Counted from the first letter of the stretch, positions 13,678 through 48,069 are shown. The stretch is 64,000 nt of DNA from an uncultured Pseudomonadota bacterium (GCA_946613885.1 CAMOGA010000004.1:3205-67204), one strand, 5' to 3'. Notes: generated from the letters alone by a model not told the origin. Made by a program: numbers and translations.

Positions 13678-13740
13678 ACTGTATATTATAGACGCATTTT
13701 TCTTTTTGTCAATACATTTATTATATTTTTATTGTTGTAA

Positions 13741-13769: not shown

Positions 13770-13792
13770 CAATGACACAACAGGGTTTATTT

Positions 13793-17181: not shown

Positions 17182-19818
17182 TTACAACAATTTAACCTTG
17201 GTTGTAGTGGTTTGTGCCTCTTCCCATTCTTTGCAATAATTCTTTTTCGTCTTTTTGCAATTTTGGGTTGTGGTTTCTTTGGTGCATTCACCTGTTGATC
17301 TGTCAAATGTGGTTGACACTTTCATTTTATAATTCCAATTATTAACTTCCGAATTTCCAATAACCCCACCAGAAGCTGCGATAGATGCTGATGCAACGGT
17401 ACCAGCCACAACGGCTGCGCCAGCCACAACCGTCCCTATTGCGGTTTCTGTTCCTACTATAGAACCTATTATTCCTGCCCCAACTGCCGCACCTGTACCA
17501 GCCGTAAACACAGCCGCCACCACGGATGCCGCCGCGATAACCCCTACAGCAATCCATTTACCAACCTCATTGGCTTTCGGTGTTGCGGTATTCGGTAAAG
17601 TACTCCTTTCTGCCCAATCATAACATAATTGTTCTGCGGCATTTTTATTTTGTTCGCCTGCCATTTTAATCTGGTCTTGCATCATACGCGTCATTTCTTC
17701 ATCATATTTTTTGTTGTAATTTTCACGCGCCTTTTTCAATGCCTTGGTTGCAATTCTTTCACGCAAACTGTTTGTTAAATTCGGAAAGCGCGCATTTTCT
17801 TTACCAATCTTACCAAATTTTTTACCATCAAAACCTTCAACCTGACGACCGGTCATACAGTATATAACGTTCGGATCAGATTCAATGGCATGTATTGTGG
17901 TTTCGACACTGTTTTCCAATGCACGAATTTCAACACCATATACTAAATCAGCAATAATATCTTTATCTTCTTTGGCTAATTTATGTCCCGCCTGTTGCAG
18001 TTTTTGCATATATTCATCAACAGTTGTAAATCCATATTCGCCAGTTTTTGGATTTTTCAATGTATATTCAATATCACCCCAATACACAACACCAGACAAT
18101 TTACCCGCCCAACCTTTGCCTTCGGGTTGAGAAACATCTTTTGAAGAAATTCCATCCGCAGATTCACGACAATCCGATGTCCATGTTATTTCGTTACCGG
18201 ATATGCTGTCGTATTTACAAACCTGATATTTGAACGAACGCGAACCCGCCAATTCATCCAATGCGAAATTATTACAATCATCGGTATCACCACAAACCTT
18301 AACTGTTGCCTCGTCCAATGCCTTTTGACATGCAGTGAATAAATCATTATCAATTTGCAATGCGACACCCTGGGCAATTTGCGCGACATAATCACGCACA
18401 CTGTCTTTGTCATAATCGGTCATACATGCGACCAATTTTTCTTCTGGGCACATATTGCCAATTGTTTCTGTATCTAAACCGATGCATTTTGAATAATCTG
18501 CACCACAAATATCGGTCAAACATTCTTTAACCTCGGTCGTACAAGCATCAACACGCATTGCCCCTAAACGCGCGACAACATAATCCCAAATTGCAGGTTC
18601 CATACGTTCACATGGATCAATTTGTACTTTACAGAAAGAACGTGCCATATCCGGTTTTGCCAGACATGCATCCATTGTTGCAACACCTTTGCCCGCAATA
18701 TCATCTTTACACGCCTTTTGAATACATGTTGAAATATCACCCATACATGATTGGCGTTTTTGTGATTCTATATTTTGTTCTGCCAAACGAATTGTTGGTG
18801 CAGATTCACGCAAGAAATCATCCCACACATAATCACGCACCGAAACACATTGATCCAAAACCTTTTCACAAATAAAACGTTTAGAATCTAATCTTTCCAT
18901 TGTAGATGCGGTTATATCGTATTTTTTTATTGTTTCAACCTTGGTACCGGCTGTACTGACGGCACGGTTATTTTGCATATTTTCAGCCGCAATAGTAAAC
19001 ACACATTGCCCCCAATCAGAACCACATGCATCATCACCCATCATACATTTTTTAAATTCAACCATACACGTTCCGCGGTCATATTTGTTTGATTGTGCCA
19101 AAGAATCTTTTAACGCGCCACGCACAGCCGCCTGAGCAGATTTTAATGCCGCGTTGGCTTCTTGTTTTTTCTGGGTTATGCTGTTTGCCAATCCTTTGCA
19201 ATCCGAAGTAATTTGACGCAAATACATCTGTGTTAATAATTTCATATCTTTACTGCAAGAATCAGGAACCTGTTTTTGACATAATTTATTTGCAGAATCA
19301 TATAATGCACGACCAGTTAAATCTGACAGTTCTTCATCATCAAAAGCATCTTCGTCATCATCGTAAATTGAAGACCATTTAACTGTTGTTTTTTCTTTTT
19401 CTTGTGGTTTATTTTTTAATTTCTGAACAGAACCGTCCGCATTATAAACCCTTTCGCCACCACCAAATATAATATCTGCGTTGGCACCCGCCTGAACTTT
19501 TTCAACCTCTTCAGTACTAATACGTTCGGCCTCGGCCAAAGTTTTTCTGATTTCTTCTAAATCAGATTCATATTTTTTGGATTCATCACTGCAAGAACAC
19601 GAACCTCCATTTTCATTATCAACAATACAAAAATTATCCATACATGCATAATATGTATTATAACATTCTTCGTCATAAACCCCGGTTGCCTCTACTCTGG
19701 CCCGAACCTTAGTTCCACCAGTAATTGCGGAAGATTTAGAAGCAGCAAACGAATCGCCTGTTATAGCAAACACACCCAACAAACCGACAAATAAACCAAA
19801 CCTAAAAAAGTGCTTCAT
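17182..19818 (-). CDS. CMD-box cysteine-rich secreted protein, paralog A (878 aa), with C-terminal Gly-zipper hydrophobic region
   Basis: GGAGAGAGAG SD, signal peptide (..DSFA|AS), about 36 Cys, motif CYNTYYACMDNFCIVDNENGGSCSCSD. Colinear with the 894-, 725- and 772-aa ORFs. No family recognised. Confidence 0.85.
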   Translation of the reverse strand: MKHFFRFGLFVGLLGVFAITGDSFAASKSSAITGGTKVRARVEATGVYDEECYNTYYACMDNFCIVDNENGGSCSCSDESKKYESDLEEIRKTLAEAERISTEEVEKVQAGANADIIFGGGERVYNADGSVQKLKNKPQEKEKTTVKWSSIYDDDEDAFDDEELSDLTGRALYDSANKLCQKQVPDSCSKDMKLLTQMYLRQITSDCKGLANSITQKKQEANAALKSAQAAVRGALKDSLAQSNKYDRGTCMVEFKKCMMGDDACGSDWGQCVFTIAAENMQNNRAVSTAGTKVETIKKYDITASTMERLDSKRFICEKVLDQCVSVRDYVWDDFLRESAPTIRLAEQNIESQKRQSCMGDISTCIQKACKDDIAGKGVATMDACLAKPDMARSFCKVQIDPCERMEPAIWDYVVARLGAMRVDACTTEVKECLTDICGADYSKCIGLDTETIGNMCPEEKLVACMTDYDKDSVRDYVAQIAQGVALQIDNDLFTACQKALDEATVKVCGDTDDCNNFALDELAGSRSFKYQVCKYDSISGNEITWTSDCRESADGISSKDVSQPEGKGWAGKLSGVVYWGDIEYTLKNPKTGEYGFTTVDEYMQKLQQAGHKLAKEDKDIIADLVYGVEIRALENSVETTIHAIESDPNVIYCMTGRQVEGFDGKKFGKIGKENARFPNLTNSLRERIATKALKKARENYNKKYDEEMTRMMQDQIKMAGEQNKNAAEQLCYDWAERSTLPNTATPKANEVGKWIAVGVIAAASVVAAVFTAGTGAAVGAGIIGSIVGTETAIGTVVAGAAVVAGTVASASIAASGGVIGNSEVNNWNYKMKVSTTFDRSTGECTKETTTQNCKKTKKNYCKEWEEAQTTTTKVKLL

Positions 19819-19840: not shown

Positions 19841-22018
19841 TTACATATTTATGTCTTCACAAGATTCGATTTGCTGACAAAAATCGGTTTTCCCGCCAGA
19901 TTGATACCCCAACACACCGGCACCAACCGCACCAACAACACCACCAATTGCCGTTCCCCATCCAGCATTTATCATTGTTCCTGCGGATGCGCCTGCGGAC
20001 AAACCACCGGCTGCTGCCTTCAATGCGGCGGTTGATTTTTTCTCGCCACCTTGTTCGCAAACCTGTTGCATACGACACACATGACAATTACGTGTATTTG
20101 GTTCAAACGAAACACTTTTTATATACATGTAATTTGATTTTGAATTCTTTGGTTGTTCTGCTTTGTATGTATTCAAACAAACCTGTTCCGCCTTGCTTAC
20201 ATCAGCTTTGCGTGTTAATTCTGCAATTTTCGTATCTAATTCACGCAAATTACGATTTTCTGCTGACATTTTTGCCAATAATTTTGCGGTATTAAATACA
20301 TTTGTTCCCAAAGAATTTTTTCCTTTCAATTTTTTACCACTGCCACTTTGTGAATCAGCGCATGCCGCAACCGTCTTGTCACGTTCAAATTGTTTGAAAA
20401 ATTCTTCAACAGACGCATCAGAGGCAGCGATTATCTTTGCACGCAAATTCGCAGATTTTGATTCAGTATCAGGCAGTTCTGTTAATTTTTCTACATCGTT
20501 TACAATTGGTAAACACGCCATATCTGTCCCACAAACCTTGCTTAATTGTTCACTAAAATAATTTACACAACCTGTTAACATCTGGTAATCCATTTGCAGA
20601 ATCGCAGATTGCACAATTATATCAAATTGAACTGCATTTTTACACGATGGGAACATACTCTGTGGACACAATGCTACAATTTCATACGATTTTTTACCAA
20701 CACATTCTGGTTTAGTAAAATCAACACCGCATTTATCTTGCAAGCATTTATCAACATCATTTTCACAGAATTTTGTCTGTAAATACCCCAGTTTATCATT
20801 AATTACAGATTGAAACCCAGGAATCATGTCATTACATTCTGTGATAACTGGACATATTCCAGCCGCCACATTAACATTAGTCAAACATTCCGCATTTGTA
20901 GATGTAGAACAACTTTCTTCCAAACAATTTTGAACACGTGCCAAACACGTTCCACGCTTGTTTGTATCTGCGTATTTTGCCGCCTCTGCCAGAACGCTTT
21001 TGGATTCAGCCGCCCAATCTTCGACAACATAATCACGTACCGCCATACACTGATCCAGAATATTATCACACGCATTTGAACGACGTTGCAATAATCCTGC
21101 ATCCAGACAGTTTTCAAAATTTGCACCACAACCACCCTTGTCTGCTATGCACGCACGATATGCCAACAAACATTCGCCACGATTGTATTTGTTTGTTGTG
21201 TCCAACATTTCCAAACGCGCTTTGCGAACCGCAGATTCCGCAATACGTTTATTAGATTCTGCATTTGCCTTTTGTTCTTTCAAATACGCATCATAAGTTT
21301 TGCAATCTTGGGTCACCATACGAGAATATAACAATTCTTCCATTTTTGCCCTATCACCACATGCCGCCAAATCTGGTTTACAATATTTTACCGCCATACC
21401 ATACAAAGAATCGCCAATTTCCACATCTTCATCCAAATCGCCACTATCATCACCAGATAACCAAGACATAAAATCTATACTGGAAATTTTCTGACTGGCC
21501 GGCGCATCATCTTTGAACACCAATCGTGCCTTGGCACCCAATTGTTCACGTTCGACACCTTCGGTAAACAATTTGTCGGCTTCTTCTTGAATTTTTAAAA
21601 CTTCATTAATTTTACTTTTGGCGCGTTCTATATTATCAGAACATGCGCAACGTTCACCCTGGCTTTCATCCAACAAACAAAAATTATCCATACATTCACG
21701 ATACGCATCACGACAATCGTTTGACGATACAACCGCATCATCAGACGCATCAACCATATCATCATCCGAATCGTCTGCAACATCATCATACACAGGCAAT
21801 GCCTGAGCCGCCGCAACAGTGTCGGCAGTAATCATTGCCCCAGCCGAAGTCGAAGTATTTGTATTTGTTTGTATGGCTTTGCCGGCCATACCTGGCATAC
21901 GTGCCGATGTTTGATTATTTCTGCTGACCCCAACGCGAACCTCGCTATCCCCGCGAGATGCCGCAAACGCGACCATTGGAACTAATAAAACCAACGGTAA
22001 AATTTTTATTATTTTCAT
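19841..22018 (-). CDS. CMD-box cysteine-rich secreted protein, paralog B (725 aa), with Gly-zipper near the C-terminus
   Basis: ATG 22018 (MKIIKILPLVLL...) lies 9 nt after an AGAGGGA SD. Contains CRDAYRECMDNFCLLDESQGERCACSD. Stop is 22 nt upstream of the paralog A start, suggesting an operon. Confidence 0.85.
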   Translation of the reverse strand: MKIIKILPLVLLVPMVAFAASRGDSEVRVGVSRNNQTSARMPGMAGKAIQTNTNTSTSAGAMITADTVAAAQALPVYDDVADDSDDDMVDASDDAVVSSNDCRDAYRECMDNFCLLDESQGERCACSDNIERAKSKINEVLKIQEEADKLFTEGVEREQLGAKARLVFKDDAPASQKISSIDFMSWLSGDDSGDLDEDVEIGDSLYGMAVKYCKPDLAACGDRAKMEELLYSRMVTQDCKTYDAYLKEQKANAESNKRIAESAVRKARLEMLDTTNKYNRGECLLAYRACIADKGGCGANFENCLDAGLLQRRSNACDNILDQCMAVRDYVVEDWAAESKSVLAEAAKYADTNKRGTCLARVQNCLEESCSTSTNAECLTNVNVAAGICPVITECNDMIPGFQSVINDKLGYLQTKFCENDVDKCLQDKCGVDFTKPECVGKKSYEIVALCPQSMFPSCKNAVQFDIIVQSAILQMDYQMLTGCVNYFSEQLSKVCGTDMACLPIVNDVEKLTELPDTESKSANLRAKIIAASDASVEEFFKQFERDKTVAACADSQSGSGKKLKGKNSLGTNVFNTAKLLAKMSAENRNLRELDTKIAELTRKADVSKAEQVCLNTYKAEQPKNSKSNYMYIKSVSFEPNTRNCHVCRMQQVCEQGGEKKSTAALKAAAGGLSAGASAGTMINAGWGTAIGGVVGAVGAGVLGYQSGGKTDFCQQIESCEDINM

Positions 22019-22044
22019 ATGAAACATTCCCTCTTTACCGTTTT

Positions 22045-22490: not shown

Positions 22491-24809
22491 ATGAGAAAAA
22501 TTTGTCTGATTTTAATCGGGCTTGTGTTGTGCATTAATAATGTTAATGCGGCTGTTCGTAATACTAACACACAAAATACAAGACAAATTGTATCCCCAAG
22601 AAATGATGTGAACACAATTGTTCGTGCAACCACGCAAAAACGTACTGTCACACAACGTTCATCTGGCAAAAATCAGAATACATCTGTGCGCGGAACTGCT
22701 AAAAAAACAGTAATTGGTCGTTCTGCAACGCAACCGATTACGTCTGCACGTAATAATATTGCACAACCAACCCGCGTATCACGTGCTGCAACAAATAATA
22801 TAAAAACACGTACATTTGGTGATAATTATAATTCATGTCGCGATGCATACTTTACGTGTATGGATCAATTTTGTGCAAATGTAAATGAAAATTATCGTCG
22901 CTGCGTTTGTTCGTCTAAATTAAAAGATATTCAAAACAAAGAAAAATTATTATCACAAACATCAACCAATCTGCAAAGTTTCGAAGATTTTAATATTGAT
23001 GCGATTTCAAAAACTGCCGCTGAGGTAAAAGCAATGGGTTCTGCAACAGCCGGTGAATCCGCAATAAAAAAAGACACATCTGCCAGTGCAAAAACATTAA
23101 ACAGCGTCAGTAGTGTTTTAAGTGATACAAAAAAACAATCTTTATCAACCGCTGGGAAATTAGATGCGGGTGGCGACATCAAAACAATCTGGGCAACAAC
23201 CGATTTTATTGGTGGTGCAGATATTGCCAATCTGACAGGCGATGCATTATTTAATGCAGTTCATTCACAATGCGCAGAAATGGTTGCTGAATCTTGTGCA
23301 GATTCTAATTTGAAAATGGTATCTTCTGCATATGGAATGTATATTGAAAATGATTGTGCGGTATTAGAAAATAACCTGAATAAAAAAACAACCGCGGCAA
23401 ATGCATCAATACGAACAACGCGTCATAAAATGCAGGACGCACGTTTGGAAAATTATAATGCACACAATTCATTAAATCTGGATGATTGTATTGCACGTGT
23501 TCGTTCAGATATTATCGCGGATACCGCATGTGGTGATGGATATATTCATTGTTTAGATTTTTCCGGTAAATATTTAAATATCACAACAGGTGCACCAATT
23601 TATTCGCCAGATTTTTACCAAATCGAAAATCAAATATCTTTATCTGGTGATGTTTTAAATAACAGTCAAAATTCATCGTTTATTACGATGCTGAACAAAA
23701 AACGGGCATTTGCCAAAAAAGATTTAGATTTATGTGTTGATGATGCAGATTATGTATGGAACGAATTTTTACGTCAGGCATTGGTTGAAATTTATCAGGG
23801 TCAACAAAAACGTGTTCAAAATGTAAAAAATGAATGTTTACAGGTTGTAAATGAATGTTATTTGAATCAATCTGAATCTTTGAAAAATTTTACAGATTCT
23901 TCTTCGCAAATGATATTCGTGCAATCGCTGGAATTATCCGAAGAAATGTGTGCTGAAAAACTGGATACTTGCAGCAACCTGTACGGTGGTGGCCCAGAAG
24001 GGTTAAACACATTAATTGCAACAATGACTGGCATAACAGATTTAACCATAGAACAATCATGTCCTGCGTTATTGGCAACATATGCTCAATCTATATGCAC
24101 CCCACCTGCCAGCGATTCTGCACATGCATATCCATACGGGTGTCGTAAATATGCGCCTGGTGAATCGTATTATGCCCGTAATGAAATATGCAATACAACA
24201 CTTGTAAATCCGTTTTCACGCTCTGATATTTTAACAACACACACAATGTCTTTGGGATATGCAGATTATGCCGGATATTGTGAAGATAAATCATATAATA
24301 AAATATATACCAGTTGTAATGTCGGATATTATTTACATAACACTGAATGTGCAAATTCAGACAGGGTTCTTTATGATTTTTGTTTACTTAACGCAACAGA
24401 ATGTCTTAAATGTCCTGATAATTTAATATGCCCTGGTGGGACAAAGGCGCCTGTTTCGATTGATGATGATTTGTACCAAAATTGCGGACAATATTATGTT
24501 GGCAGTTTATACCAACAATTGGTTATATACGCATTGCAAAATTGCACACGAACAACAAATACATCAAATGTGTTATCAGAATATCTGTTGTCAGAGGTTG
24601 ATAAAGTAGCAACCAGTGTTCGTATGTCTTTGGTATCTGCTTTGTCCAAAGAATGTTCCGATATGAACGGGTTGTGGGTTGATGCAATATGGTCAGATGA
24701 CAACAATGACGGATACCATGATAAAACTGGGGATACATTATTTGGTGATTTCTATGTTGCAACGGGCGCGAATAAATTGTGGGGTTATTGTAAAAATCCA
24801 AACCAATAA
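22491..24809 (+). CDS. CMD-box cysteine-rich secreted protein, paralog C (772 aa), with CxxCP-type C-terminal module
   Basis: Signal peptide (..NNVNA|AV), R/T/N-rich region, CRDAYFTCMDQFCANVNENYRRCVCSS and later family motifs. The C-terminus contains CLKCPDNLICPGG. Confidence 0.85.
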   Translation: MRKICLILIGLVLCINNVNAAVRNTNTQNTRQIVSPRNDVNTIVRATTQKRTVTQRSSGKNQNTSVRGTAKKTVIGRSATQPITSARNNIAQPTRVSRAATNNIKTRTFGDNYNSCRDAYFTCMDQFCANVNENYRRCVCSSKLKDIQNKEKLLSQTSTNLQSFEDFNIDAISKTAAEVKAMGSATAGESAIKKDTSASAKTLNSVSSVLSDTKKQSLSTAGKLDAGGDIKTIWATTDFIGGADIANLTGDALFNAVHSQCAEMVAESCADSNLKMVSSAYGMYIENDCAVLENNLNKKTTAANASIRTTRHKMQDARLENYNAHNSLNLDDCIARVRSDIIADTACGDGYIHCLDFSGKYLNITTGAPIYSPDFYQIENQISLSGDVLNNSQNSSFITMLNKKRAFAKKDLDLCVDDADYVWNEFLRQALVEIYQGQQKRVQNVKNECLQVVNECYLNQSESLKNFTDSSSQMIFVQSLELSEEMCAEKLDTCSNLYGGGPEGLNTLIATMTGITDLTIEQSCPALLATYAQSICTPPASDSAHAYPYGCRKYAPGESYYARNEICNTTLVNPFSRSDILTTHTMSLGYADYAGYCEDKSYNKIYTSCNVGYYLHNTECANSDRVLYDFCLLNATECLKCPDNLICPGGTKAPVSIDDDLYQNCGQYYVGSLYQQLVIYALQNCTRTTNTSNVLSEYLLSEVDKVATSVRMSLVSALSKECSDMNGLWVDAIWSDDNNDGYHDKTGDTLFGDFYVATGANKLWGYCKNPNQ

Positions 24810-37394: not shown

Positions 37395-37410
37395 TAAAAA
37401 TAATAAAAAA

Positions 37411-37436
37411 AAAACACCGATTTTCATCGGTGTTTT
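37411..37436. terminator. Bidirectional terminator between ccrM and paralog D
   Basis: AAAACACCGA-tttc-TCGGTGTTTT hairpin with A/T runs on both sides. Confidence 0.55.
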
Positions 37437-37454
37437 CTTTATCTTGAAACGTGT

Positions 37455-39611
37455 TTATTCTATGCCATGTGATTGAGCCACGGCAGTATTTACTATACAT
37501 ATACTGCCCGACACAACACATGCAGATTGAACCAATTCGTATGTATTGCCCTGAATCAAATTAATTTGAACATTTGGACAATCATTCAAACGATTGTTAA
37601 ATTGACTGCATGCCTGTTGCCAAGATGCCATATCTGATACCGCAGATGTTGGCGACACAGTTTCCGGCAAACGCAAGTTCCATTTTACATAGAAATCTTT
37701 TAAAGAATCAATTGTGTGTGTTTTGCCCAATGCAACACTGTTCAAACCATCACCAACACGACAAGTAATGTTGCTGCGTTCAACCAAGGCGGTGATTCCT
37801 GTAACAATTCCACCGACACCGGCACCTGTTGCACCACCAACCAATGCACCCTTGGCGATTTCTGCGCCTTTGTTTGCATCTTTAACAACATCTTGTTTAA
37901 TATTCAATGAAGACAATAATTTTTGTAATTCATTGATTTGATATTGTATTTGGGCAACCGTCAAACAGTTATTATTATGTGAACACAATATTCCCGAATT
38001 GCCAGCCATATATGTTTGCACCTGTAAAGGAACGAACATACATTGTCTGTTAAATGTTTCAACACTTGATTGTGTTGTTCCAGCAGGTGCGCCACATTGT
38101 ATACTTTGACCAATCACCAATGTATTTCCGTCTTGAGACAAAACAATATTCCCACCAACAACTGTTTTGGTATCACCGCCGATTTTTGAAGAAATCGAAT
38201 TAGATATCTGCACATTTTGTTGGTTAGACAAACATTGTTTTACTAAACTGTCGTATAAAACAACTTTTTCTTCCAATTGGTGCAAATCACGACAATGGTC
38301 TTCATCCATTTCGTTAAAATTATATCCATCTGAGAATATTGGTGTTCCTGTAAATGTTTTTACATCACCGTTGCCAGAAAACATGACATTTTTATATGCA
38401 TAACTCTTTAACACACCTGCCTGACCAGATGCATATATCTTAGCACCCAATTCTTTACGGTATTTTTCATCTGTGCATGGATCATTTTTCGCATCAACAG
38501 AATCTAAATATGCCTGATGTTTTTCATTATAATTATGCGCACCAACGCCCGCGCCAATTGCAGTTCCCAATGCCGTACCACCACCAACAGCAACAACCGC
38601 TGTCGTTTTTGTTTTGTTCATCAATGAAAAATCAAACAAATCTTTGTTGCAAGTAAACGAAGAACCCGCACGTTGCCATACTTCGGCCGGATTATCATTA
38701 CCAACAGCCCCGAACAACCAACTGTTTTTAATCAATTCGTCTTTGTTATACGCAGCAACACGAACCAGACATTCTGCATTGCACCCATCCCAACGGGCAT
38801 AATGACCGCGATTACCACTGTATCCGACAGTATTTACGACATCACCTTGTGGATTATCTTTAGACAACATTCCTGCCCGTGCACCATTATATGCACCGAC
38901 ACGATTATTGTATTCTGAATTCACAGCATTTACATCTGAAACCGCAGCAAACGAAGAACCATACGTATTACGATCCAGCAACAAACATGTGTTTTCAGCC
39001 TGATTTGGTGTCAATCCAGTTTTTCTTAACACAAAATTATAATATTGTGGTTGAATAACTCTGGAATTAAAATCCAACCATACATCCGAAGATTGTGCAT
39101 AAACATTACGACAATCAACACGCACCTCTGCAATACATCTTTCAATTTCTGCCTGACACAAATGCATACCGTTCATAACAGAATTTCGAATATCGTCATT
39201 ACAGAACAAATCATTTATTCCGCCCGGCAAAGCCCCAGTATTAATACATTGCAATATGCTGTCCATACACATTTTTATTGTGTACGCAGAATTTCTTACC
39301 CCACCATCTGGGCATTCTGGATCTGGGTCTGGATCCGGGTTTGGATCTGGGTCTGGATCAGGTGTTGGTGTTGGAACGACATGTGGCATACCTGCCTCGA
39401 CCGGTGCAGTGACAACATGAACCGCCGGATTGCCGATTGTATTCAACCCAACCGTTGGTATAGTTGGCATACGCGCAGACATGGTTGAACGCCCACTTTG
39501 TGAATTTTGATTTCCACGTGGATCATCGCGCCCAGCCGCAAACGCAGCACCAAAAACAGCCAATGTGGCAATACTAACCACTGATTTTCCAAATAAATTC
39601 AATACTTTCAT
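37455..39611 (-). CDS. Cysteine-containing secreted/membrane protein, divergent paralog D (718 aa), with (PD)n linker and two Gly-zipper segments
   Basis: AGGGGA SD and signal peptide MKVLNLFGKSVVSIATLAVFGAAFA|A. The SARMP motif is shared with paralog B. The CMD-like box is AYTIKMCMDSILQC. Confidence 0.8.
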   Translation of the reverse strand: MKVLNLFGKSVVSIATLAVFGAAFAAGRDDPRGNQNSQSGRSTMSARMPTIPTVGLNTIGNPAVHVVTAPVEAGMPHVVPTPTPDPDPDPNPDPDPDPECPDGGVRNSAYTIKMCMDSILQCINTGALPGGINDLFCNDDIRNSVMNGMHLCQAEIERCIAEVRVDCRNVYAQSSDVWLDFNSRVIQPQYYNFVLRKTGLTPNQAENTCLLLDRNTYGSSFAAVSDVNAVNSEYNNRVGAYNGARAGMLSKDNPQGDVVNTVGYSGNRGHYARWDGCNAECLVRVAAYNKDELIKNSWLFGAVGNDNPAEVWQRAGSSFTCNKDLFDFSLMNKTKTTAVVAVGGGTALGTAIGAGVGAHNYNEKHQAYLDSVDAKNDPCTDEKYRKELGAKIYASGQAGVLKSYAYKNVMFSGNGDVKTFTGTPIFSDGYNFNEMDEDHCRDLHQLEEKVVLYDSLVKQCLSNQQNVQISNSISSKIGGDTKTVVGGNIVLSQDGNTLVIGQSIQCGAPAGTTQSSVETFNRQCMFVPLQVQTYMAGNSGILCSHNNNCLTVAQIQYQINELQKLLSSLNIKQDVVKDANKGAEIAKGALVGGATGAGVGGIVTGITALVERSNITCRVGDGLNSVALGKTHTIDSLKDFYVKWNLRLPETVSPTSAVSDMASWQQACSQFNNRLNDCPNVQINLIQGNTYELVQSACVVSGSICIVNTAVAQSHGIE
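39315..39374 (-). repeat. In-frame (Pro-Asp)n / PTPT coding microsatellite
   Basis: ggatctgggtctggatccgggtttggatctgggtctggatca encodes PTPTPDPDPDPNPDPDPDPE. Confidence 0.8.
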
Positions 39612-39699
39612 GATATTTCCCCTAGATTCCTGTAAGAACATTATATCATATAATTGACATAATAAAAAGTTTTTTTGTAAATTATTTTTTATAAAAATA

Positions 39700-39727
39700 T
39701 TGACAAATTATATCGATTGTCTATAAT
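39700..39727 (+). promoter_or_regulatory. Consensus promoter TTGACA-16-TATAAT ending 6 nt before ATG 39734 (leaderless mRNA predicted)
   Basis: TTGACA at 39700-39705 and TATAAT at 39722-39727. No room for an SD. Confidence 0.5.
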
Positions 39728-39733
39728 ATAAGT

Positions 39734-40690
39734 ATGAATAAGGTTTTAGAATTTTTTAAATCAAAAATAATTATTGTCAAATGGACAATATGGTATTTTT
39801 TTGTATTGTGGTTAATTTTGAAATATATATTCAAATTTGATATGTTTTCTTATCATTATTGGTGGACATTTTTTCATGCAACATTACACGGATTTGCCGG
39901 ATTAACATTTGGTTTATTGATGTATGGCGCAATACCGGTTTATATAGCAACAACCGTCATCACATATCGTAAAAAAGAATTTATAGTCAAAATTCCTGGA
40001 TGGGATAAATTTGTTGATTTTATAAAAAAAATATTTACAACAAAACCTGTTGAGGTATCAGAACCAGAACCCGAATCCGAAGAACAAGAACAAAATCAAG
40101 AACCAGAATTTCCACCCGAATTACCACCTGAATTACGTATTCCATTTATGCGTGCAAAAAAACATCTGTCTTTAAATGGGGCGGTATCCGTGTATAACCA
40201 ACAACCAACCGCCACACAAAAACAAATCGAATCGGTTCCAAACAATACCCCAGAACCACAAATACCAATTCCAACTGATTTTGACATTGGTGATGAAATT
40301 GCCGACATTCACGATTCGATTCCAACATTTACAGACATTAATTTTGACACACCAATTGCAACCGAAAAAGAATTAGAAAACAACACAACAAAATATTTAA
40401 ACACGCATAATATTGAATTTGAAACGTATCGTAATTTTGTTGCAACGGAAAAATATTTAATATACGAACACAGCGATAATGATTTTTGGATTATGGATGG
40501 TGATTCTTGGTTTGCATCTGGAAAACAAATTGATTCACCAATACAAGAATTAATTGATATCGCAAAACAAAATAATTTAACACCGGTAATTTATTTACAA
40601 TCAACCAATATAATGGATTTAGATACCACAATCGCAAACTTTGAATCTATGGGCATCAAAGTAATTAAAGATTTGAGTGAATTAGATTAA
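39734..40690 (+). CDS. Membrane protein (3 N-terminal TM helices, acidic PE-rich linker, C-terminal globular domain), unknown function
   Basis: Hydrophobic N-terminus, EPEPESEEQEQNQEPEFPPELPPEL linker. Located between paralogs D and E. Confidence 0.6.
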   Translation: MNKVLEFFKSKIIIVKWTIWYFFVLWLILKYIFKFDMFSYHYWWTFFHATLHGFAGLTFGLLMYGAIPVYIATTVITYRKKEFIVKIPGWDKFVDFIKKIFTTKPVEVSEPEPESEEQEQNQEPEFPPELPPELRIPFMRAKKHLSLNGAVSVYNQQPTATQKQIESVPNNTPEPQIPIPTDFDIGDEIADIHDSIPTFTDINFDTPIATEKELENNTTKYLNTHNIEFETYRNFVATEKYLIYEHSDNDFWIMDGDSWFASGKQIDSPIQELIDIAKQNNLTPVIYLQSTNIMDLDTTIANFESMGIKVIKDLSELD

Positions 40691-40714
40691 AAAACCGCCC
40701 GTTTGGGCGGTTTT
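40691..40714. terminator. Bidirectional terminator
   Basis: AAAACCGCCC-gttt-GGGCGGTTTT. Confidence 0.6.
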
Positions 40715-40716
40715 AA

Positions 40717-43401
40717 TTAATGTGATTTTCCCATTTGGACGGTTTCTGTATTCAGCACAGTTCCTTCATCAAATTGATCACAATAGCCACCACCTATTCT
40801 GTGTTTAAAATTGGTACAATTATATTTAGTGGTCGTAATCGTACAAACATTTGTTGCAGAATCATACGTTGCAATAGTATCTGTCAATTGTTTAATTTTT
40901 CTGCATGCCAAATGTTTAAGGGTATAATTATCATCCGCATCCTTGCCACAACCAGTCTTTGTTTCTAATTTAGTACCATTCCAAATACGATAACTTGTTC
41001 TGTGACTGTCTTCTGCTGTATATTTATCACAACTCTTTTGATTTTCTTCATCTTTATCAACTTCATTATCGGCATAAATCATTTCGGCAATTTGATTATC
41101 CAAATCTGCTATTTGTTGTGTATATTTACTGGTTAATTCAGCATTTTTTTCTGATAACCTATTTAATAAACTGTCTGCAATAACACTGCGGTATGAATCC
41201 GTCAGATTCGGGAAACGTGCTTTGCCTGCTTCTTTACTTCCGAAATTTTTTGTACTATCAAAGCCCTGCACTTTACGCCCTTCTGTACAATAAATAACCT
41301 TAGGATCTGTGTTAATTGATGCCATTATACGATTTAATGCATTATCCAAAATTGGCGATACTTTATCATCACCAGAAAACTTCACTTCTCTGCGACCGTT
41401 GTTATCTTCTGTGTAATCGTACGATACTTTATATATATCTGGTGTCCCAACCAGAGTCGCCTGATAGTTTCCAGATTTTAAATCATTGGTGGTCATCATT
41501 GCCAAACCAGATTTACAGTCATTTCCTGGTTTACCATTTGGACAAATCTGAACACTGATATCACGTTCCAAAGGCGACAAATCAAATGTTGCAGCATCAC
41601 AAGTTTCTGTATCACCACAAATTTTTACCATGGCTTCGTTTGCCGCATTTTGACATGCGGTTGCCAGTGCATTATCAATTTGTATTGCCAATCCCTGGGC
41701 GATTTGTGCAACATATTCTTTAACCGTTTCTTCATTATATTTCGGTTTACCATTTTCATCTGCACTCATACATGCTGTCAATTTTTGATATGGACATATA
41801 TCACCAATTGAGTCAGTATCCAAACCGATACAGCCCGAATAATCATCGCCACAACGTTCGGTCAAACATGCCTTGACTTCTGTTGTACATGCATCAACCT
41901 TCATTGCACCCAATATCGCCAATAATCCGTTCCACAAAGTTGATTTTGTTGGGTTATTATAATCCCCACCGGTGGCTTCCAAACATGGTTCCAATTGAAC
42001 CTTGCATAACGATTTGTATGTTTCTGGATTGGATAAACACATATCGTATGAATCACTGTCCCCAAAATTGGATTTACATGCATTTTGGAAACATTTTGCA
42101 AGTGTTGGTATACAATTCGAACGTAAATTTTGTTCAGCAATTAATTCTGCAGATTTTATCGCAGGTGCCGCATTACGTAAAAATCCGTTCCATACTGCAT
42201 CATTTTTGTTTGAATTAACACACTGTTTTGTGATACGTTCGCAAATCATTTTCTTTGCCAATAATTGTTCCATTGTTGATGCAGCCAATGTTATATCTGC
42301 ACCACCACGTGAACCCTTGATTTTAGATTGCTTTGCAACACTGCCTTTCTTGTTATTTTTTACATTTTCATTGGCCGCCAATGTCACACATCCTGTATAA
42401 TCATCACCACATTCTGCGGTTGTTTTCATACATTCAGTAAATGCAATCACACATTCACCAGTTGTTGCATATTTATTCTGATTTTTATATTCATCCAATG
42501 CTGCATCACGTAATGCCTTTTGTGCAGTTTGTAATTTTTGTTGACTTTGACTTCTTTGCGCCTTTAAACTGTTTTCATACGCGATACAATCAGATTTAAT
42601 TTTTTGCGCATAAACCAATGATAACATTGAACCATAACTTTTGCATTGCGCAGGAATCTGGGCAGAACATATTTTTACTGTTTCGTTATATAATGCCGTT
42701 CCTTTCTTATCCATCAAAGATTGTTGGGCAGATTGCGCATCAAAAATATCATCATCTAAATCAGAAAACACATTATTATCGAATATAGACAAATCTAATG
42801 TACGCGCCCGCTTTTTATTTTCTTCGGTCTGTTTGTTGGCATTTGCAGCCTGTTCGCCAGCCATTTGGGCACGTTTCATAATTTCCGCCTCGGCTTCGCC
42901 CATTTGAATACGTTCGACACCTTCGGTTGCCATGATATATGATTGTTCATCCAGTTTTACAATTTCTTCCAGAACTTTATCTAATTCAGTAATTTTATCA
43001 TTACATTGACAACGACCGCCGGTTGCATTGTCTAACATACAAAACGCATCCATACATCCATAAAAAGCATTTTGACATTCTTCTGGCACCGCAGTATTTT
43101 CGGTTGCCACTGCAACCTTGGTTCCTGTATTTATGACCTTTTGCGTGGCACCCGCACGTGCCGCCTGAACACCAGGTTTTACCGCCGTCTGTTTTTTGCC
43201 AGCCCGTGCAGAAACATTTCCATTATTTACAACCTGTTGACGTTTACCTGCGCGTGCATTATTTACATTTACTGTTTCTGATGTATCATTGTTCACCGTA
43301 TTAACAGCATTATTACGTCCACGTTGGGCAACCGCCGCATTTGCAGTAAAATCCGCCACACAAAGCGATAAAAACAATGCAAAAAACATATATTTGCGCA
43401 T
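40717..43401 (-). CDS. CMD-box cysteine-rich secreted protein, paralog E (894 aa)
   Basis: AAGGAG SD, signal peptide (..FTANA|AV), three ARAG repeats, CQNAFYGCMDAFCMLDNATGGRCQCND. Long identical blocks with paralog A (MKVDACTTEVKACLTERCGDDYSGCIGLDTDSIGDICP). Confidence 0.85.
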   Translation of the reverse strand: MRKYMFFALFLSLCVADFTANAAVAQRGRNNAVNTVNNDTSETVNVNNARAGKRQQVVNNGNVSARAGKKQTAVKPGVQAARAGATQKVINTGTKVAVATENTAVPEECQNAFYGCMDAFCMLDNATGGRCQCNDKITELDKVLEEIVKLDEQSYIMATEGVERIQMGEAEAEIMKRAQMAGEQAANANKQTEENKKRARTLDLSIFDNNVFSDLDDDIFDAQSAQQSLMDKKGTALYNETVKICSAQIPAQCKSYGSMLSLVYAQKIKSDCIAYENSLKAQRSQSQQKLQTAQKALRDAALDEYKNQNKYATTGECVIAFTECMKTTAECGDDYTGCVTLAANENVKNNKKGSVAKQSKIKGSRGGADITLAASTMEQLLAKKMICERITKQCVNSNKNDAVWNGFLRNAAPAIKSAELIAEQNLRSNCIPTLAKCFQNACKSNFGDSDSYDMCLSNPETYKSLCKVQLEPCLEATGGDYNNPTKSTLWNGLLAILGAMKVDACTTEVKACLTERCGDDYSGCIGLDTDSIGDICPYQKLTACMSADENGKPKYNEETVKEYVAQIAQGLAIQIDNALATACQNAANEAMVKICGDTETCDAATFDLSPLERDISVQICPNGKPGNDCKSGLAMMTTNDLKSGNYQATLVGTPDIYKVSYDYTEDNNGRREVKFSGDDKVSPILDNALNRIMASINTDPKVIYCTEGRKVQGFDSTKNFGSKEAGKARFPNLTDSYRSVIADSLLNRLSEKNAELTSKYTQQIADLDNQIAEMIYADNEVDKDEENQKSCDKYTAEDSHRTSYRIWNGTKLETKTGCGKDADDNYTLKHLACRKIKQLTDTIATYDSATNVCTITTTKYNCTNFKHRIGGGYCDQFDEGTVLNTETVQMGKSH

Positions 43402-43427: not shown

Positions 43428-43456
43428 ATTTTATCATAAAAACACCCACCCTGCAA
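43428..43456 (-). promoter_or_regulatory. Predicted promoter (TTGCAG-17-TAAAAT) of paralog E
   Basis: Minus strand: TTGCAG (43456-43451) and TAAAAT (43433-43428). Confidence 0.4.
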
Positions 43457-43470
43457 ATTAAATATCATAA

Positions 43471-43492
43471 AAAAATCGCCCAATCGGGCGAT
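43471..43492 (-). terminator. Rho-independent terminator after rplQ
   Basis: Minus strand: ATCGCCC-gatt-GGGCGAT followed by T7. Confidence 0.6.
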
Positions 43493-43513
43493 TTTAATAA
43501 CACTAATTTATTT

Positions 43514-45295: not shown

Positions 45296-46339
45296 TTAAT
45301 TATTTTCTGATACGTTTTTGACAACACGCGTATTAATTCTGCCAACGGTTAAAACAGACGGTATTTCTATATTACTGCCGTTTCCAAACGACAATTTTAT
45401 TGACACTGCCTTACAATCATCGGCTTTTGTTTTCCCGGTCCCATTTGTCGTTGTTCCCGATGGACATGAGATACAAGACGATGCACCAGTACCTGAGAAA
45501 GTTCCAATTGGGCATATATAATCATTATTATCAACACTGTTGGGTTTGCAACTATTATTTCTATTACTCCCAGTCATCCCAGTGTTTGGACAATAATATC
45601 CTGCAAGACACGAAACACATGATTCAGCGCCAGCCCATGAACATGTGCCAACAGAACAGGCAATTGACATCCCATTTCCAGAACAATATGACCCCGCAGG
45701 ACATTGTTCACAAACACCATTTAACATATAATGTCCCGTATTGCACGCAATACAATCATTATGTTCAGCATTTGCAAAATTACCGGTTGCACACGTTTGG
45801 CACACATTGTTATTGTCATAATATTCTGTTAATCCATCACATACCACACATTGTGTATGGTCTGAATTCGAATACGGTGTTTCACCATCACATTGTGTAC
45901 ATTGCACCGCACCAGCATCGGATATTTCGGCACCCTGACAAGAATTTATATTGCCATCACCATTACAATACGACCCCGCAGGACATTGTTCACAAACACC
46001 ATTTAACATATAATGCCCCGCATTGCATGCAACACAACCGTTATGATTTGTATTTGCAAATTTTCCAGATTCACACGTTTGACACACATTGTTGTTATCA
46101 TGATATTTTGTTAATCCATCACATGCCACACATTGTGTATATGTTGAATCTGAATATGGTGCATCATCTGGACACAGTTGCGGTGCGTTTGTGCCGTCAC
46201 ATGAATACCCACCGGGACATGTTTCGCAAACACCGCCATTATCATATTCACCCACATCACATGCAAATACACCATATATACCACCAACGGATACACATAC
46301 AAACATTATCCCAGACAAAAAACATTTCCATAAATGCAT
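45296..46339 (-). CDS. Secreted CxxC-repeat protein (347 aa, 38 Cys, 12 CxxC motifs)
   Basis: N-terminal hydrophobic signal/anchor, then repeated C-x2-C-x-[AG]-G-x-Y modules. Own promoter and SD. Confidence 0.8.
   Translation of the reverse strand: MHLWKCFLSGIMFVCVSVGGIYGVFACDVGEYDNGGVCETCPGGYSCDGTNAPQLCPDDAPYSDSTYTQCVACDGLTKYHDNNNVCQTCESGKFANTNHNGCVACNAGHYMLNGVCEQCPAGSYCNGDGNINSCQGAEISDAGAVQCTQCDGETPYSNSDHTQCVVCDGLTEYYDNNNVCQTCATGNFANAEHNDCIACNTGHYMLNGVCEQCPAGSYCSGNGMSIACSVGTCSWAGAESCVSCLAGYYCPNTGMTGSNRNNSCKPNSVDNNDYICPIGTFSGTGASSCISCPSGTTTNGTGKTKADDCKAVSIKLSFGNGSNIEIPSVLTVGRINTRVVKNVSENN
45653..46174 (-). repeat. Tandem duplication with 282-bp (94-aa) period inside the 347-aa gene
   Basis: ccccgcaggacattgttcacaaacaccatttaacatataatg occurs at 45692 and again at 45974. 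At the protein level, CPDDAPYSDSTYTQCVAC... parallels CDGETPYSNSDHTQCVVC... Confidence 0.8.
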
Positions 46340-46410: not shown

Positions 46411-48069
46411 TCAAAGTTCAGATGCCTCAAACAATGTCTTGCGGATACCGGCGTTCGTTTTAACCGCATCGGCACAGTGTTTTGCACACGCAGTTTCACA
46501 AAACGGTAAAGCCACAGGATTCACCATTACCCACTTCTGGGTAGGTTTGATTTTGCAGCCATTAATGGTAAAATCTGCCCCGCTTGAAGAACAAGAACAC
46601 TTTTTATCATTACAACTGGCACTGCCTGTTAAAATTCCACCATGATAAGTGACAGACCATGTATTGCCACTAGAAGTGGCCATAACTCCGGACAAAGCGA
46701 GTGCCCTGTCACACCCCCTCCCGACATAAGCATTTGATGCATCGCGTGACTTATTCGTATTTACTGCAATCTTTGCACATTTCCCGTTCACCACATTGTA
46801 CCCATGTTTACAGTCTGTGGCACGACAAGACCAATCTATACGACCATTATTATTAGCACATTCACATTGTGCTTTGGACACAGATTCATCTAGGCGATAC
46901 CCATAACTGGATTGGCAATATAAGAACCTGTTATCGTCACAATCCACATCTATTTTTGCCCCCAAATCAAAGGTTTCGTAATCATCACCAAAAAAATGAC
47001 TGCATACATCTTTTGTTGACCCTTCTTTTACACAATTCGTATCCTCCTGTTGTATCCAGCCATCTTTACAGTGAGAGATATAACAGACCCACCCCACAGG
47101 GGTACACTTGCAATATCCGTCCCCGAAACCAGATGTATCATATAATATTGCTAACCCTGTACAATCTGTATCATCTGTAAAACAATTAAAATCTATGCGT
47201 TCGTCCTTCTTATATTCTTTGCCCTTGAATATACATTGGTCGGTATTATGGTTATTATTTGCCGATGTTTTTTTATTTTCTGATGTCTTTTTATTTTCTG
47301 ATGTCTTTTTTACGCATTTTGTTTTGTCTGATGATGGGGTATAAGGTTTGGCACATGCTGTCACCTCACATTTTTCACCGTGTTTTACCGCACGTATAAC
47401 ATTTTCATCCGTTTTCTGCGCATCTGCGGTGCAATCGGTTTCAGTATCAACAACATTTAATTCACAATGTTGTTTATCTGAGGTTGGTTGATACCCGGTA
47501 TCGCATTCTATGATTTCACATGTTTCGCCGTTCTTGGTCGCTTTTGTGACATTTTCATCTTTCGCCTTTGCTTCATCCGTACAATCCGTTGTATCTGTGG
47601 GCTGAACAGTCGTTGGTTGCTGCGGTTGTGTCACAGTTATTACAACACACGCCCCATTTTGATACACTTTGCCTGTTTCATTACATGTGCAAGTGCTATT
47701 ATTATATGTTCCACCTGCCCGTTCACATTGTTCACGTAGTATTTGTTCCGCCGCAGCCAGACGTTTTTGTTCTTCTAATTTTTTTATATTTTCTTGGGTA
47801 TCTGATATTTGTTTGTCTGTTTTTTCTATCTTTTTATCATAATCTTTTTGCGTGTTTGACAATGCAATATTACCGGCAACACCGACCGCAGTTAATCCCA
47901 ATGTTGATATACCAGCAATTTTCCATCCATTTATATTACCACTGCATTTTTCCAATTCAGCCATCTTTTGTTGTTTTTCCGCAACCAATTGATTATAACG
48001 CGCACTGGCCCCAAATACGTATGTTGGGATGATTGCCATCATTAATGAAATTAATATGCATTTCTTCAT
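46411..48069 (-). CDS. Cysteine-rich secreted/membrane-anchored protein (552 aa) with coiled coil and internal repeats
   Basis: Signal peptide ending ..VFGA|SAR, Gly-rich hydrophobic helix (WKIAGISTLGLTAVGVAGNIAL), coiled coil, then a Cys-rich region. Confidence 0.8.
   Translation of the reverse strand: MKKCILISLMMAIIPTYVFGASARYNQLVAEKQQKMAELEKCSGNINGWKIAGISTLGLTAVGVAGNIALSNTQKDYDKKIEKTDKQISDTQENIKKLEEQKRLAAAEQILREQCERAGGTYNNSTCTCNETGKVYQNGACVVITVTQPQQPTTVQPTDTTDCTDEAKAKDENVTKATKNGETCEIIECDTGYQPTSDKQHCELNVVDTETDCTADAQKTDENVIRAVKHGEKCEVTACAKPYTPSSDKTKCVKKTSENKKTSENKKTSANNNHNTDQCIFKGKEYKKDERIDFNCFTDDTDCTGLAILYDTSGFGDGYCKCTPVGWVCYISHCKDGWIQQEDTNCVKEGSTKDVCSHFFGDDYETFDLGAKIDVDCDDNRFLYCQSSYGYRLDESVSKAQCECANNNGRIDWSCRATDCKHGYNVVNGKCAKIAVNTNKSRDASNAYVGRGCDRALALSGVMATSSGNTWSVTYHGGILTGSASCNDKKCSCSSSGADFTINGCKIKPTQKWVMVNPVALPFCETACAKHCADAVKTNAGIRKTLFEASEL
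47262..47318 (-). repeat. Three 18-bp tandem repeats encoding (KKTSEN)3
   Basis: tgatgtctttttattttc is repeated; the protein reads KKTSENKKTSENKKTSAN. Confidence 0.8.

Follow-up and report, generated by a model that had tools for sequence, protein, structure and literature searches.

Within a 64,000-nucleotide stretch of DNA from an uncultured Pseudomonadota bacterium (GCA_946613885.1 CAMOGA010000004.1:3205-67204; hereafter 'the window', with positions counted from its first letter), three genes lie between rplQ, at the end of a ribosomal operon, and a ccrM-type methyltransferase gene: E and D, on the minus strand, and, between them on the plus strand, M. An earlier note on this DNA, made from the sequence alone, proposed that D and E are two further members of a family of large proteins encoded elsewhere in the window and that they bracket a leaderless gene for a membrane protein. 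All three open reading frames (ORFs) are present where the note placed them, and we designate the proteins by letter: A, 878 amino acids (aa); B, 728 aa; C, 772 aa; D, 718 aa; E, 894 aa; and M, 318 aa. The results establish that E is a true paralog of A, B, and C, with which it forms one family; sequence and profile comparisons indicate that D is not a detectable member of that family and represents a separate one; and E, M, and D are part of an ancient, lineage-specific core neighborhood of independently transcribed genes. The genes are as follows.

40717-43401, minus strand: gene E, 894 aa (ORF; BLASTP and hhalign to A; AlphaFold2 model)
39734-40690, plus strand: gene M, 318 aa, without Cys (ORF, alignment, AlphaFold2 model, hydropathy)
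37455-39611, minus strand: gene D, 718 aa; longest ORF 728 aa, start at 39641 (ORF and ortholog alignment)
17182-19818, minus strand: paralog A, 878 aa, E-like, with an additional 65-residue Gly/Ala-rich hydrophobic region near the C-terminus
19841-22027, minus strand: paralog B, 728 aa, with SARMP close to its N-terminus and a single glycine-zipper region toward the C-terminal end
22491-24809, plus strand: paralog C, 772 aa, the family's most divergent member

The relationship of E to A, B, and C is seen both in direct sequence comparison and in profile comparison. BLASTP aligns A with E at 36.9% identity across 711 aa (E-value 1.4e-134) and detects other pairs within the family (A and B, 4e-55; A and C, 3e-24; B and E, 6e-37; C and E, 6e-24). 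With profiles built from orthologs in other genomes, hhalign returns probabilities of 98-100% among A, B, C, and E, with E-values of 8e-262 over 763 columns for A/E, 1e-53 for B/E, and 5e-34 for C/E. The results thus bear out the proposal that E is a paralog of the 878-aa protein A. The blocks on which that proposal drew, M[RK]VDACTTEVK..CGxDYSxCIGLDT, YVAQIAQGxAxQIDN, and ARFPNLT, are indeed present in both proteins, but the description 'nearly identical' is true of short blocks only.

The hallmark of the family is the content and spacing of its Cys residues. The A/B/C/E proteins contain 36, 36, 33, and 39 Cys, of which about 30 are invariant; Cys make up 4-5% of each sequence, are almost wholly invariant, and in the mature proteins are mostly even in number. 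The dominant spacing is the heptad C-x6-C, with nine pairs in A, nine in E, eight in B, and five in C, vs. about 1.5 in shuffled sequences; for E, the shuffle mean is 1.65, and a count of nine is reached by 1 of 2000 shuffles. The family is marked by an N-terminal box, C-x6-C-M-D-x2-C-x9-10-C-x-C, together with at least five C-x6-C pairs, and E carries both, the box having the sequence CQNAFYGCMDAFCMLDNATGGRCQC. A longer module, C-x6-C-[ML]-x3-5-CG[DAS]D[YW]xxC, occurs twice in A and twice in E (in E as C-x6-C-[ML]-x3-5-CGDDY[ST]GC, at aa 317-338 and 505-524), which suggests an internal duplication.

Gene E has the following parts and flanking elements.

43472-43495, minus strand: intrinsic-terminator-like hairpin after rplQ, parting E from the ribosomal operon
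43428-43457, minus strand: promoter-like site of E, past the terminator of rplQ, with the sequence TTTGCA-18-TAAAAT and a TG upstream (predicted; consensus scan only)
43096-43332, minus strand: low-complexity, predicted-disordered N-terminal region of E, aa 24-102, with a conserved AARAGATQKVINTGTKV motif at its end (model and conservation)
41602-43095, minus strand: conserved, mostly helical core of E, aa 103-600, which contains the nine C-x6-C pairs (DSSP on the AlphaFold2 model; 40-73% identity to orthologs)
40720-41601, minus strand: variable alpha/beta and beta-rich C-terminal part of E, aa 601-894 (7-39% identity)
40692-40715, either strand: 24-nt hairpin AAAACCGCCC-GTTT-GGGCGGTTTT, a predicted bidirectional terminator in the 26-nt gap between the convergent genes M and E (read from sequence)

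The gene is preceded by an AAGGAG Shine-Dalgarno site and encodes a Sec signal peptide with cleavage after ANA, followed by a basic, disordered N-terminal region with SARAG/AARAG motifs; a signal peptide is present in each of the five large proteins A, B, C, D, and E. The AlphaFold2 model of E, made from a 105-sequence alignment, has a mean predicted local distance difference test score (pLDDT) of 76.8 and a predicted template-modeling score (pTM) of 0.46. In the model, residues 13-102 have pLDDT below 50, and this N-terminal region holds four invariant residues, R82, A83, G93, and K95; long helices span residues 107-600; and a confident alpha/beta segment (600-730), a helical hairpin (735-792), and a beta-rich C-terminus follow. 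We conclude that A, B, C, and E are Sec-exported proteins with a disordered, basic N-terminal stretch and a long, mostly helical core with C-x6-C pairs. In a close strain represented by locus L085, a run of N at about positions 3850-3950 of the scaffold falls exactly in the low-complexity N-terminal repeat of the E ortholog (P0001), which is consequently called as a 720-aa fragment; this repeat region seems hard to assemble.

The closest relatives of E, M, and D identify the source of the window as a Candidatus Enterousia / order Rs-D84 alphaproteobacterium. The best relatives are encoded in metagenome-assembled genomes (MAGs) labeled Alphaproteobacteria bacterium, Candidatus Enterousia sp., or uncultured proteobacterium, which originate from rumen, colon, and faeces of ruminants, horses, chickens, and humans. 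The numbers of homologs are lower bounds (at least 898 for E, at least 762 for D, and at least 271 for M, including one, P0241, that is identical to M), and all named homologs are from Alphaproteobacteria or Enterousia MAGs.

The separation of A and E is old. At the 300 residues that are identical between A and E, third codon positions agree at a frequency of 0.61, vs. 0.57 expected from codon usage alone; in the most conserved A/E blocks, nucleotide identity is 0.70-0.74 and third-position identity is 0.50-0.57, that is, at the level of saturation; and the longest exact DNA match between the two genes is 13 nt and is out of register. Each paralog, moreover, has its own orthologs at conserved positions in many Rs-D84 species, E after rplQ and C, B, and A together, and in a neighbor-joining tree (which carries no support values) E of the window falls among the genes that follow rplQ in other species, with A, B, and C each placed among their respective orthologs. 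The only feature of the pair that would suggest an assembly duplication artefact or a recent gene conversion is the presence of short, highly similar protein blocks, and both explanations are extremely improbable: overall protein identity is just 37%, each copy has separate orthologs elsewhere, and the saturation of synonymous positions and the 13-nt longest match exclude both gene conversion and an assembly artefact. The conserved A/E blocks are kept by selection on the protein. The results agree with the earlier note's inference of an old intragenomic duplication rather than a recent island, an inference that is also in line with the finding that no relatives of E, D, or M were found in viral contigs, phages, or plasmids.

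E is amplified in some other species. Tandem E copies, two to four per genome, are present downstream of rplQ in eight loci (L014-L016, L020, L021, L026, L058, and L076), and the second and third copies cluster by position across species in the neighbor-joining tree, so that this amplification also appears old. The lineage of the window has a single E copy.

Gene D represents a separate family. Its parts are as follows.

39465-39479, minus strand: SARMP motif of D, aa 55-59 of the 728-aa ORF (R57 and M58 invariant in 40 orthologs)
38532-38609, minus strand: glycine-zipper segment 1 of D, aa 345-370, TTAVVAVGGGTALGTAIGAGVGA (hydropathy; G355, G359, and G367 invariant)
37842-38561, minus strand: variable, indel-rich central region of D, aa 361-600, between the zippers (9-30% identity)
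37788-37874, minus strand: glycine-zipper segment 2 of D, aa 590-618, GAEIAKGALVGGATGAGVGGIVTGITALV, with the conserved C-domain after it (hydropathy, alignment)
37407-37440, either strand: bidirectional terminator-like hairpin between the 3' ends of D and the ccrM-type methyltransferase gene

The 718-aa start of D at 39611 is to be preferred to the longest ORF, as the earlier note had it: the ortholog consensus MKxLNLFGKS begins there, a GGGGAA Shine-Dalgarno-like site precedes it, and the upstream ATG at 39641 falls within a promoter-like element, TGATATAAT. From this start the protein comprises, in order, a signal peptide, a SARMPTIPT motif, a PDPDP linker (PDPDPNPDPDPDP), an N-domain (aa 101-360) that is very conserved (up to 93% identity per 20-residue block), zipper 1, the variable middle, zipper 2, and the conserved C-domain. 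Six Cys in the variable center are invariant (C389, C450, C470, C534, C553, and C559). The features on which the assignment of D to the family had been based, namely a signal peptide, SARMP, AY-x3-MCMD-x4-C, and two Gly/Ala-rich hydrophobic segments, are all present.

The assignment itself does not survive comparison at the level of domains. BLASTP of D against A, B, C, and E yields nothing under an E-value of 0.1; hhalign of the D-ortholog profile against the E, A, and C profiles yields probabilities of just 0.5-12%; the 'CMD box' regions alone, compared between D and the family profile, yield an E-value of 0.12, with other residues aligned; and hidden Markov model (HMM) searches among about 1,400 locus proteins yield zero cross-hits between D orthologs and A/B/C/E in either direction. 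A search of 1.84 billion representative proteins with the D profile yields 160 clusters (at 50% identity), all D-like only, in which the distant matches share the zipper-plus-Cys regions of D and not the E core. The MCMD-x4-C box of D is in a different register from the family box, in that 'CMD' opens a C-x6-C pair in D and closes one in the family, and D has only three C-x6-C pairs.

The only significant link of D to the family is a 17-residue N-terminal motif shared with B, SARMPtMPt (hhalign probability 90.6%, E-value 1.3e-6). Taken together with the signal peptide, the presence of glycine zippers as in A and B, the three C-x6-C pairs, a count reached by 55 of 2000 shuffles and of which two (C125-C132 and C162-C169) lie in a possible stapled hairpin, and the constant occurrence of D in the neighborhood of E, this motif could be read as the trace of a highly divergent fifth paralog, in which case the locus would hold two family members around M. 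We regard that reading as quite unlikely, given the results of the four domain-level comparisons and of the large-scale search, and given the distribution of the motif. The pattern R[MA]PxM has 60 genuine occurrences in 1,374 locus proteins, each within the first 120 residues, and its carriers are exported Cys-rich proteins of three unrelated families: D, B, and a family of 500-670 aa. The presence of SARMPTM in a third, unrelated family implies a shared signal rather than shared descent. We conclude that, of the two additional family members proposed at this locus, E is one and D, as far as sequence and profile comparisons can detect, is not.

Distant D-like proteins from other, apparently higher-GC, metagenomic bacteria (P0496-P0508) have 'SRARPGS[IV][ST]GA' immediately after the signal peptide and also bear the zipper-plus-Cys C-terminal module of D, GKGLLIGTGVGALAGLGYYFAEGASVFCNVGGLEQVKLN; these features indicate that the D superfamily and the N-terminal S-x-R-x-P motif reach beyond Enterousia. 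The genes around one distant D-like protein, P0505 (locus L084), yielded no further clue.

Gene M, as had been described, encodes a membrane protein on the strand opposite to D and E. Its two transmembrane (TM) helices, 12-33 and 53-80, flank a conserved aromatic/His loop, FDMFSxHYWWKFFHATLHGF; an acidic, Pro-rich, disordered linker with the conserved short motifs PPELRIPF, IPIPTDFDI, and PTFTDINFD follows; and the C-terminal alpha/beta domain (215-318) is modeled by AlphaFold2 with pLDDT above 90. By the positive-inside rule, both termini are predicted to be cytoplasmic (N-in, C-in). We conclude that M is an inner-membrane protein that crosses the membrane twice, has its C-terminal domain in the cytoplasm, and is transcribed divergently from D.

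The upstream region of M contains one element.

39700-39727, plus strand: sigma-70 consensus promoter TTGACA-16-TATAAT, 12/12 match, ending 6 nt before the M ATG

No Shine-Dalgarno site precedes M, whereas most other genes of the window have one. In 63 distinct orthologous upstream regions the promoter type is kept in 60, with the extended form TTGACA..TGTCTATAAT in 55, and in 55 of the 60 promoter-bearing regions the next ATG follows 6-9 nt past the -10 box. We call a gene leaderless if its -10 element lies 5-9 nt upstream of the start codon and a Shine-Dalgarno site is lacking, and both are true of M. With a near-invariant promoter that ends 6 nt before the ATG, M is thus very probably translated from a leaderless mRNA, as the earlier note proposed. 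The promoter is also an imperfect palindrome, TTGACAA-N10-TTGTCTA, which could be a putative operator. Elsewhere in the window, a near-consensus promoter, TTGACAAAAAGAAAAATGCGTCTATAAT (13685-13712, minus strand), lies 7 nt before the ATG of an APH/choline-kinase-like gene (12757-13677, minus strand) and has the core GTCTATAAT in common with the M promoter, and an outer-membrane-protein (OMP) beta-barrel gene (15674-16654, minus strand) has TATAAT at a distance of 9 nt from its ATG. It thus appears that a few genes are leaderless, most others having Shine-Dalgarno sites.

The arrangement of E, M, and D is a conserved property of the order. Most of 79 distinct loci from species-representative Rs-D84 genomes have the gene order rpoA-rplQ-E-M (opposite strand)-D, and in the nearer relatives ccrM-nrdR-SLT-RNase HII-pgk-clpP-clpX follow, which is precisely the arrangement of the window. 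Rearrangement in L039, L048, L049, L062, L068, and others has not parted M from D, which still lie side by side in divergent orientation. The A/B/C locus and the D-M-E locus are 12.6 kb apart in the window, where the earlier note had described two separate loci about 13 kb apart, but the split is specific to this lineage: C and B lie directly after D in two loci (L046 and L061), and E lies just upstream of C-B-A in three (L053, L064, and L083), from which it follows that the two loci of the window are one split, shuffled neighborhood. The loci of the window lie among housekeeping genes (clpXP, ABC ATPases, pgk, RNase HII, SLT, nrdR, ccrM, rplQ, and rpoA), as the earlier note had described, and no integrase or transposase gene adjoins them.

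Several further observations concern the surroundings of these genes. A 273-aa Bro-N gene between the E and M orthologs of one lineage only (L001/L002, 12865-13686) is the sole mobile-element-like gene seen in the neighborhood. In distant Rs-D84 genomes, the neighbor of D is a 756-766-aa protein with 32-50 Cys (L034, 16643-18943, minus strand; L003, 15580-17850, minus strand); only the L034 protein was scanned for domains, which revealed CarboxypepD_reg at the N-terminus and an OmpA peptidoglycan-binding domain at the C-terminus. After this OmpA-domain neighbor come further exported Cys-rich proteins, one of about 500 aa with SRMPTM and one of about 290 aa with a CxxxxxxxCLDSxC box. In the window, two further exported Cys-rich genes lie inside the ribosomal run, between rpsK and rpoA and on the same strand: 45296-46339 (minus), which encodes 347 aa with 38 Cys (11%) and weak Ephrin_rec_like/TNFR-like repeats, and 46411-48069 (minus), which encodes 552 aa with 38 Cys, 'GASARYN' right after the signal peptide, and a Gly-rich hydrophobic segment. 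In other genomes the rpsK-rpoA slot holds a variable ORF of 246-1009 aa, with just 25-34% identity. An OMP beta-barrel gene and an M23 peptidase gene adjoin A, and a 253-aa Fic/DOC-domain protein is encoded at 13772-14533 (plus), between the kinase-like and M23 peptidase genes, near the A/B/C locus. One alphaproteobacterial contig with ribosomal and E-family genes (L063, CAVGNU010000007.1) is filed as 'Bacteroides fragilis isolate ... cleanbin'; this bin is probably mislabeled or contaminated.

To assess selection we compared the window with one close strain (locus L085; synonymous divergence, dS, 0.03-0.12). In the E core the ratio of nonsynonymous to synonymous divergence (dN/dS) is 0.13; D has values of 0.06-0.18 and M a value of 0.04, with 0.00 for rpoA and 0.01 for ccrM as references. 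Values of 0.04-0.18 indicate that D, M, and E are functional and under purifying selection. Of the checks that the earlier note had suggested, the one for gene conversion between A and E gave the negative result described above. Change is concentrated in one part of E. Of the 50 amino-acid differences between E and P0001, 38 lie within aa 701-894, corresponding to a rate about 10-fold that of the rest, and for this tip dN is 0.135 and dS is 0.286, vs. 0.009 and 0.068 for the E core. Since both dN and dS are raised in the tip, exchange by recombination, that is, a mosaic module, accounts for the difference better than simple positive selection; a test for positive selection relative to the close strain gave dN/dS below 1 everywhere.

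Recombination-like replacement of the E tip would also be in keeping with the view that the large proteins are secreted effectors or polymorphic toxins directed against the host or competitors, with M as an immunity or export accessory protein, and the export of large proteins with variable C-terminal parts, the tandem amplification of E in some species, and the host dependence of the organism would suit such a function. Other properties of the locus make it unlikely. Domains typical of toxins, peptidases, nucleases, or secretion systems were not detected in scans against Pfam, NCBIfam, PADLOC, and PHROGs; the variable tips are not followed by small ORFs of the immunity type; the site behind the ribosomal operon is fixed and conserved order-wide, and the cores are under strong purifying selection; the hydrophobic glycine zippers suggest retention in the membrane; and M, with a mean column identity of 58-62%, is far more conserved than usual immunity proteins.

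Searches for known relatives were uniformly negative. Scans of E, D, M, A, B, and C against Pfam, NCBIfam, PHROGs, and PADLOC gave nothing meaningful, the anti-phage models of PADLOC included; for A-E there is no Pfam or NCBIfam match at an E-value of 1 or below to the Cys-rich surface or envelope families (chlamydial OmcB, Giardia VSP, CHCH). With a threshold for structural matches of E-value 0.001 or below, either in Foldseek searches with the models of E and M or in comparison of sequence profiles with the PDB, no match was obtained: profiles A1, A2, and A3 gave E-values of at least 0.23 against PDB sequences (hmmsearch), and M gave neither a Pfam match nor a fold match to the ZipA_C domain. 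Weak nuclease-like Foldseek matches of M (NucS/EndoMS, splicing endonuclease, and the Cas1 N-domain) had probabilities of at most 0.6 and TM-scores of at most 0.24 and were not used. D falls below the gathering threshold for the Pfam glycine-zipper families PF13441, PF13488, and PF05433; its best related Pfam matches are C19orf12 (17.2 bits, cutoff 30) and MccV (13.3 bits), and PF13441 gives an E-value of 0.008 in 1 of 40 orthologs. The literature on Enterousia/Rs-D84 yielded genome-content papers, with no mention of proteins A-E or M.

The biology described in that literature provides a setting for the proteins. Genomes of Enterousia (GTDB order Rs-D84) are mostly smaller than 1 Mb and are without most biosynthetic pathways, the tricarboxylic acid (TCA) cycle, and respiratory chains, and the organism is described as a strict fermenter; MreB, RodA, and MrdA are retained; and the bacteria are proposed to depend on a partner, contact with which might be mediated by 'hypothetical membrane-bound proteins' (PMC12306168). 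Peptidoglycan-related SLT and M23 genes are present in the window.

According to the interpretation that we favor, to which we assign a probability of roughly 0.55, A/B/C/E together with D and M are lineage-specific core proteins that a host-dependent bacterium places in its envelope or on its surface. After export, C-x6-C pairs on neighboring helices would be disulfide-stapled or otherwise liganded, and the stapled helices would form rigid, protease-resistant rods. Retention in the envelope would be due to the glycine zippers (present in D, A, and B) and to the SAR(M/A)P motif that the proteins share near the N-terminus. The conserved parts would make up a structural envelope or surface scaffold, with E 601-894 and D 361-600 facing outward, and these variable parts may take part in contact with the required partner cell or host. 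M may link the assembly to the cytoplasm, or anchor or regulate it. An envelope context is indicated by the OmpA-domain, Cys-rich neighbor of D and by the OMP beta-barrel and M23 genes next to A.

Several points weigh against the envelope interpretation. The localization, disulfide bonding, and partner binding proposed here are predictions from sequence and modeled structure. No fold or sequence match lends it support, the best Foldseek E-values being 0.8 (PDB) and 0.047 (BFVD) for protein E and 0.38 (PDB) for M, and with a pTM of only 0.46 the model of E does not fix the arrangement of its domains. The variable regions have dN/dS below 1, and their variability could reflect relaxed constraint. 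Adjacency of the genes is no proof of a joint function of E, M, and D, each of which has its own promoter and terminator. The main tension is chemical: in a strict fermenter without a respiratory chain, oxidation of about 170 periplasmic Cys is hard to explain.

The same tension lends some appeal to the view that, in an anaerobic periplasm, the Cys are metal ligands or a thiol redox buffer, and that the family would serve as a metal or redox store or as an oxygen-defence shield. Classical DsbB-quinone oxidation is doubtful in this lineage, a Cys content of 4-5% with near-total invariance would be in keeping with such a function, and metal binding is known for the Cys-rich surface proteins of Giardia and other anaerobic parasites of the gut. 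We nevertheless judge it unlikely: the placement of C-x6-C on predicted helices fits inter-helix staples, metal- or haem-binding motifs of the type CxxC/CxxCH are absent, no ferredoxin, rubredoxin, cytochrome, or metallothionein signatures are detected with Pfam, and the number of Cys in the mature proteins is mostly even.

A more far-reaching version of the envelope interpretation, speculative and in our estimation improbable, assigns a function to the N-terminal motif. Among the roughly 1,400 locus proteins, the motif is confined to exported Cys-rich proteins of three or more families that are not homologous to one another (D, B, and the 500-670-aa family). [SA]RMPTM / SAR(A)G might accordingly be imagined as a signal, specific to the lineage, by which proteins are sorted or tethered and which a dedicated partner recognizes in the periplasm; the invariant aromatic/His loop of M, a gene always paired with D, would be the most plausible candidate for that partner. 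E, M, D, C, B, and A, with the OmpA-domain and other Cys-rich neighbors, might then form a hitherto unknown, envelope-spanning attachment apparatus of disulfide-stapled rods for docking onto the partner cell.

Rs-D84/Enterousia bacteria are widespread in the guts of ruminants, horses, chickens, and humans and have no cultured member. A genome of about 880 genes that keeps at least five exported Cys-rich genes of 2-2.7 kb at fixed positions order-wide implies that these genes are central to the envelope or to host contact. With no Pfam family, solved relative, or fold match, the A-E proteins are well-delimited targets for learning how these bacteria live: they are candidates for a host-contact surface, could serve as antigens for labeling and sorting cells, and may represent a new class of disulfide-stapled helical envelope proteins whose N-terminal motif is perhaps a new sorting signal. 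The annotation is corrected in two respects, there being four paralogs rather than five and the 'two loci' being pieces of one shuffled neighborhood. What the results provide is a well-defined set of proteins, present throughout the order and without a structural match, in a symbiont that is uncultured and has a reduced genome; there is no mechanistic surprise as yet.

Comparison with known systems yields likenesses that would be ones of role or principle only. Chlamydial OmcB and OmcA, like the proteins of the window, are large, Cys-rich, and exported by Sec, belong to a Gram-negative bacterium that depends on a host and has a reduced genome, and are thought to rigidify or decorate the envelope, which makes the analogy one of role; in contrast to the E family, which is mostly helical with C-x6-C, OmcB is beta-rich and has no sequence or Pfam similarity to it, and, unlike chlamydiae, Enterousia has kept peptidoglycan-related genes. 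The Giardia VSP/HCMP proteins also belong to a host-dependent anaerobe of the gut lumen that exports several large proteins rich in Cys, with variable regions and differing copy numbers, but they are eukaryotic, CXXC-based, and furin/EGF-like, whereas the E family is without CXXC repeats or a Pfam VSP match. Glycine-zipper proteins (Gly-zipper_YMGG, Gly-zipper_Omp, and Rick_17kDa_Anti; SlyB-type) resemble D, A, and B in their GxxxG/AxxxG segments of 25-65 residues, which in D, A, and B plausibly enter a membrane as helical hairpins; D, A, and B differ in having no lipobox and in that their zippers are embedded in much larger Cys-rich proteins. For M only, ZipA offers a parallel: although M has two TM helices rather than one, it shares with ZipA an N-terminal anchor, a long, charged, Pro-rich, disordered linker, and a cytoplasmic alpha/beta domain of about 100 residues. 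For the helical core, the parallel is with twin CX9C/CX3C hairpins (CHCH proteins and small Tims). The spacing in the E family is x6, its proteins have 700-900 aa and about nine pairs rather than about 100 aa and two, and the pairing in the E family is inferred; but in the twin hairpins, as would be the case for C-x6-C, two Cys on one face of a helix pair with a neighboring helix, and the compartment in which they do so, the mitochondrial intermembrane space, is the topological equivalent of the alphaproteobacterial periplasm.

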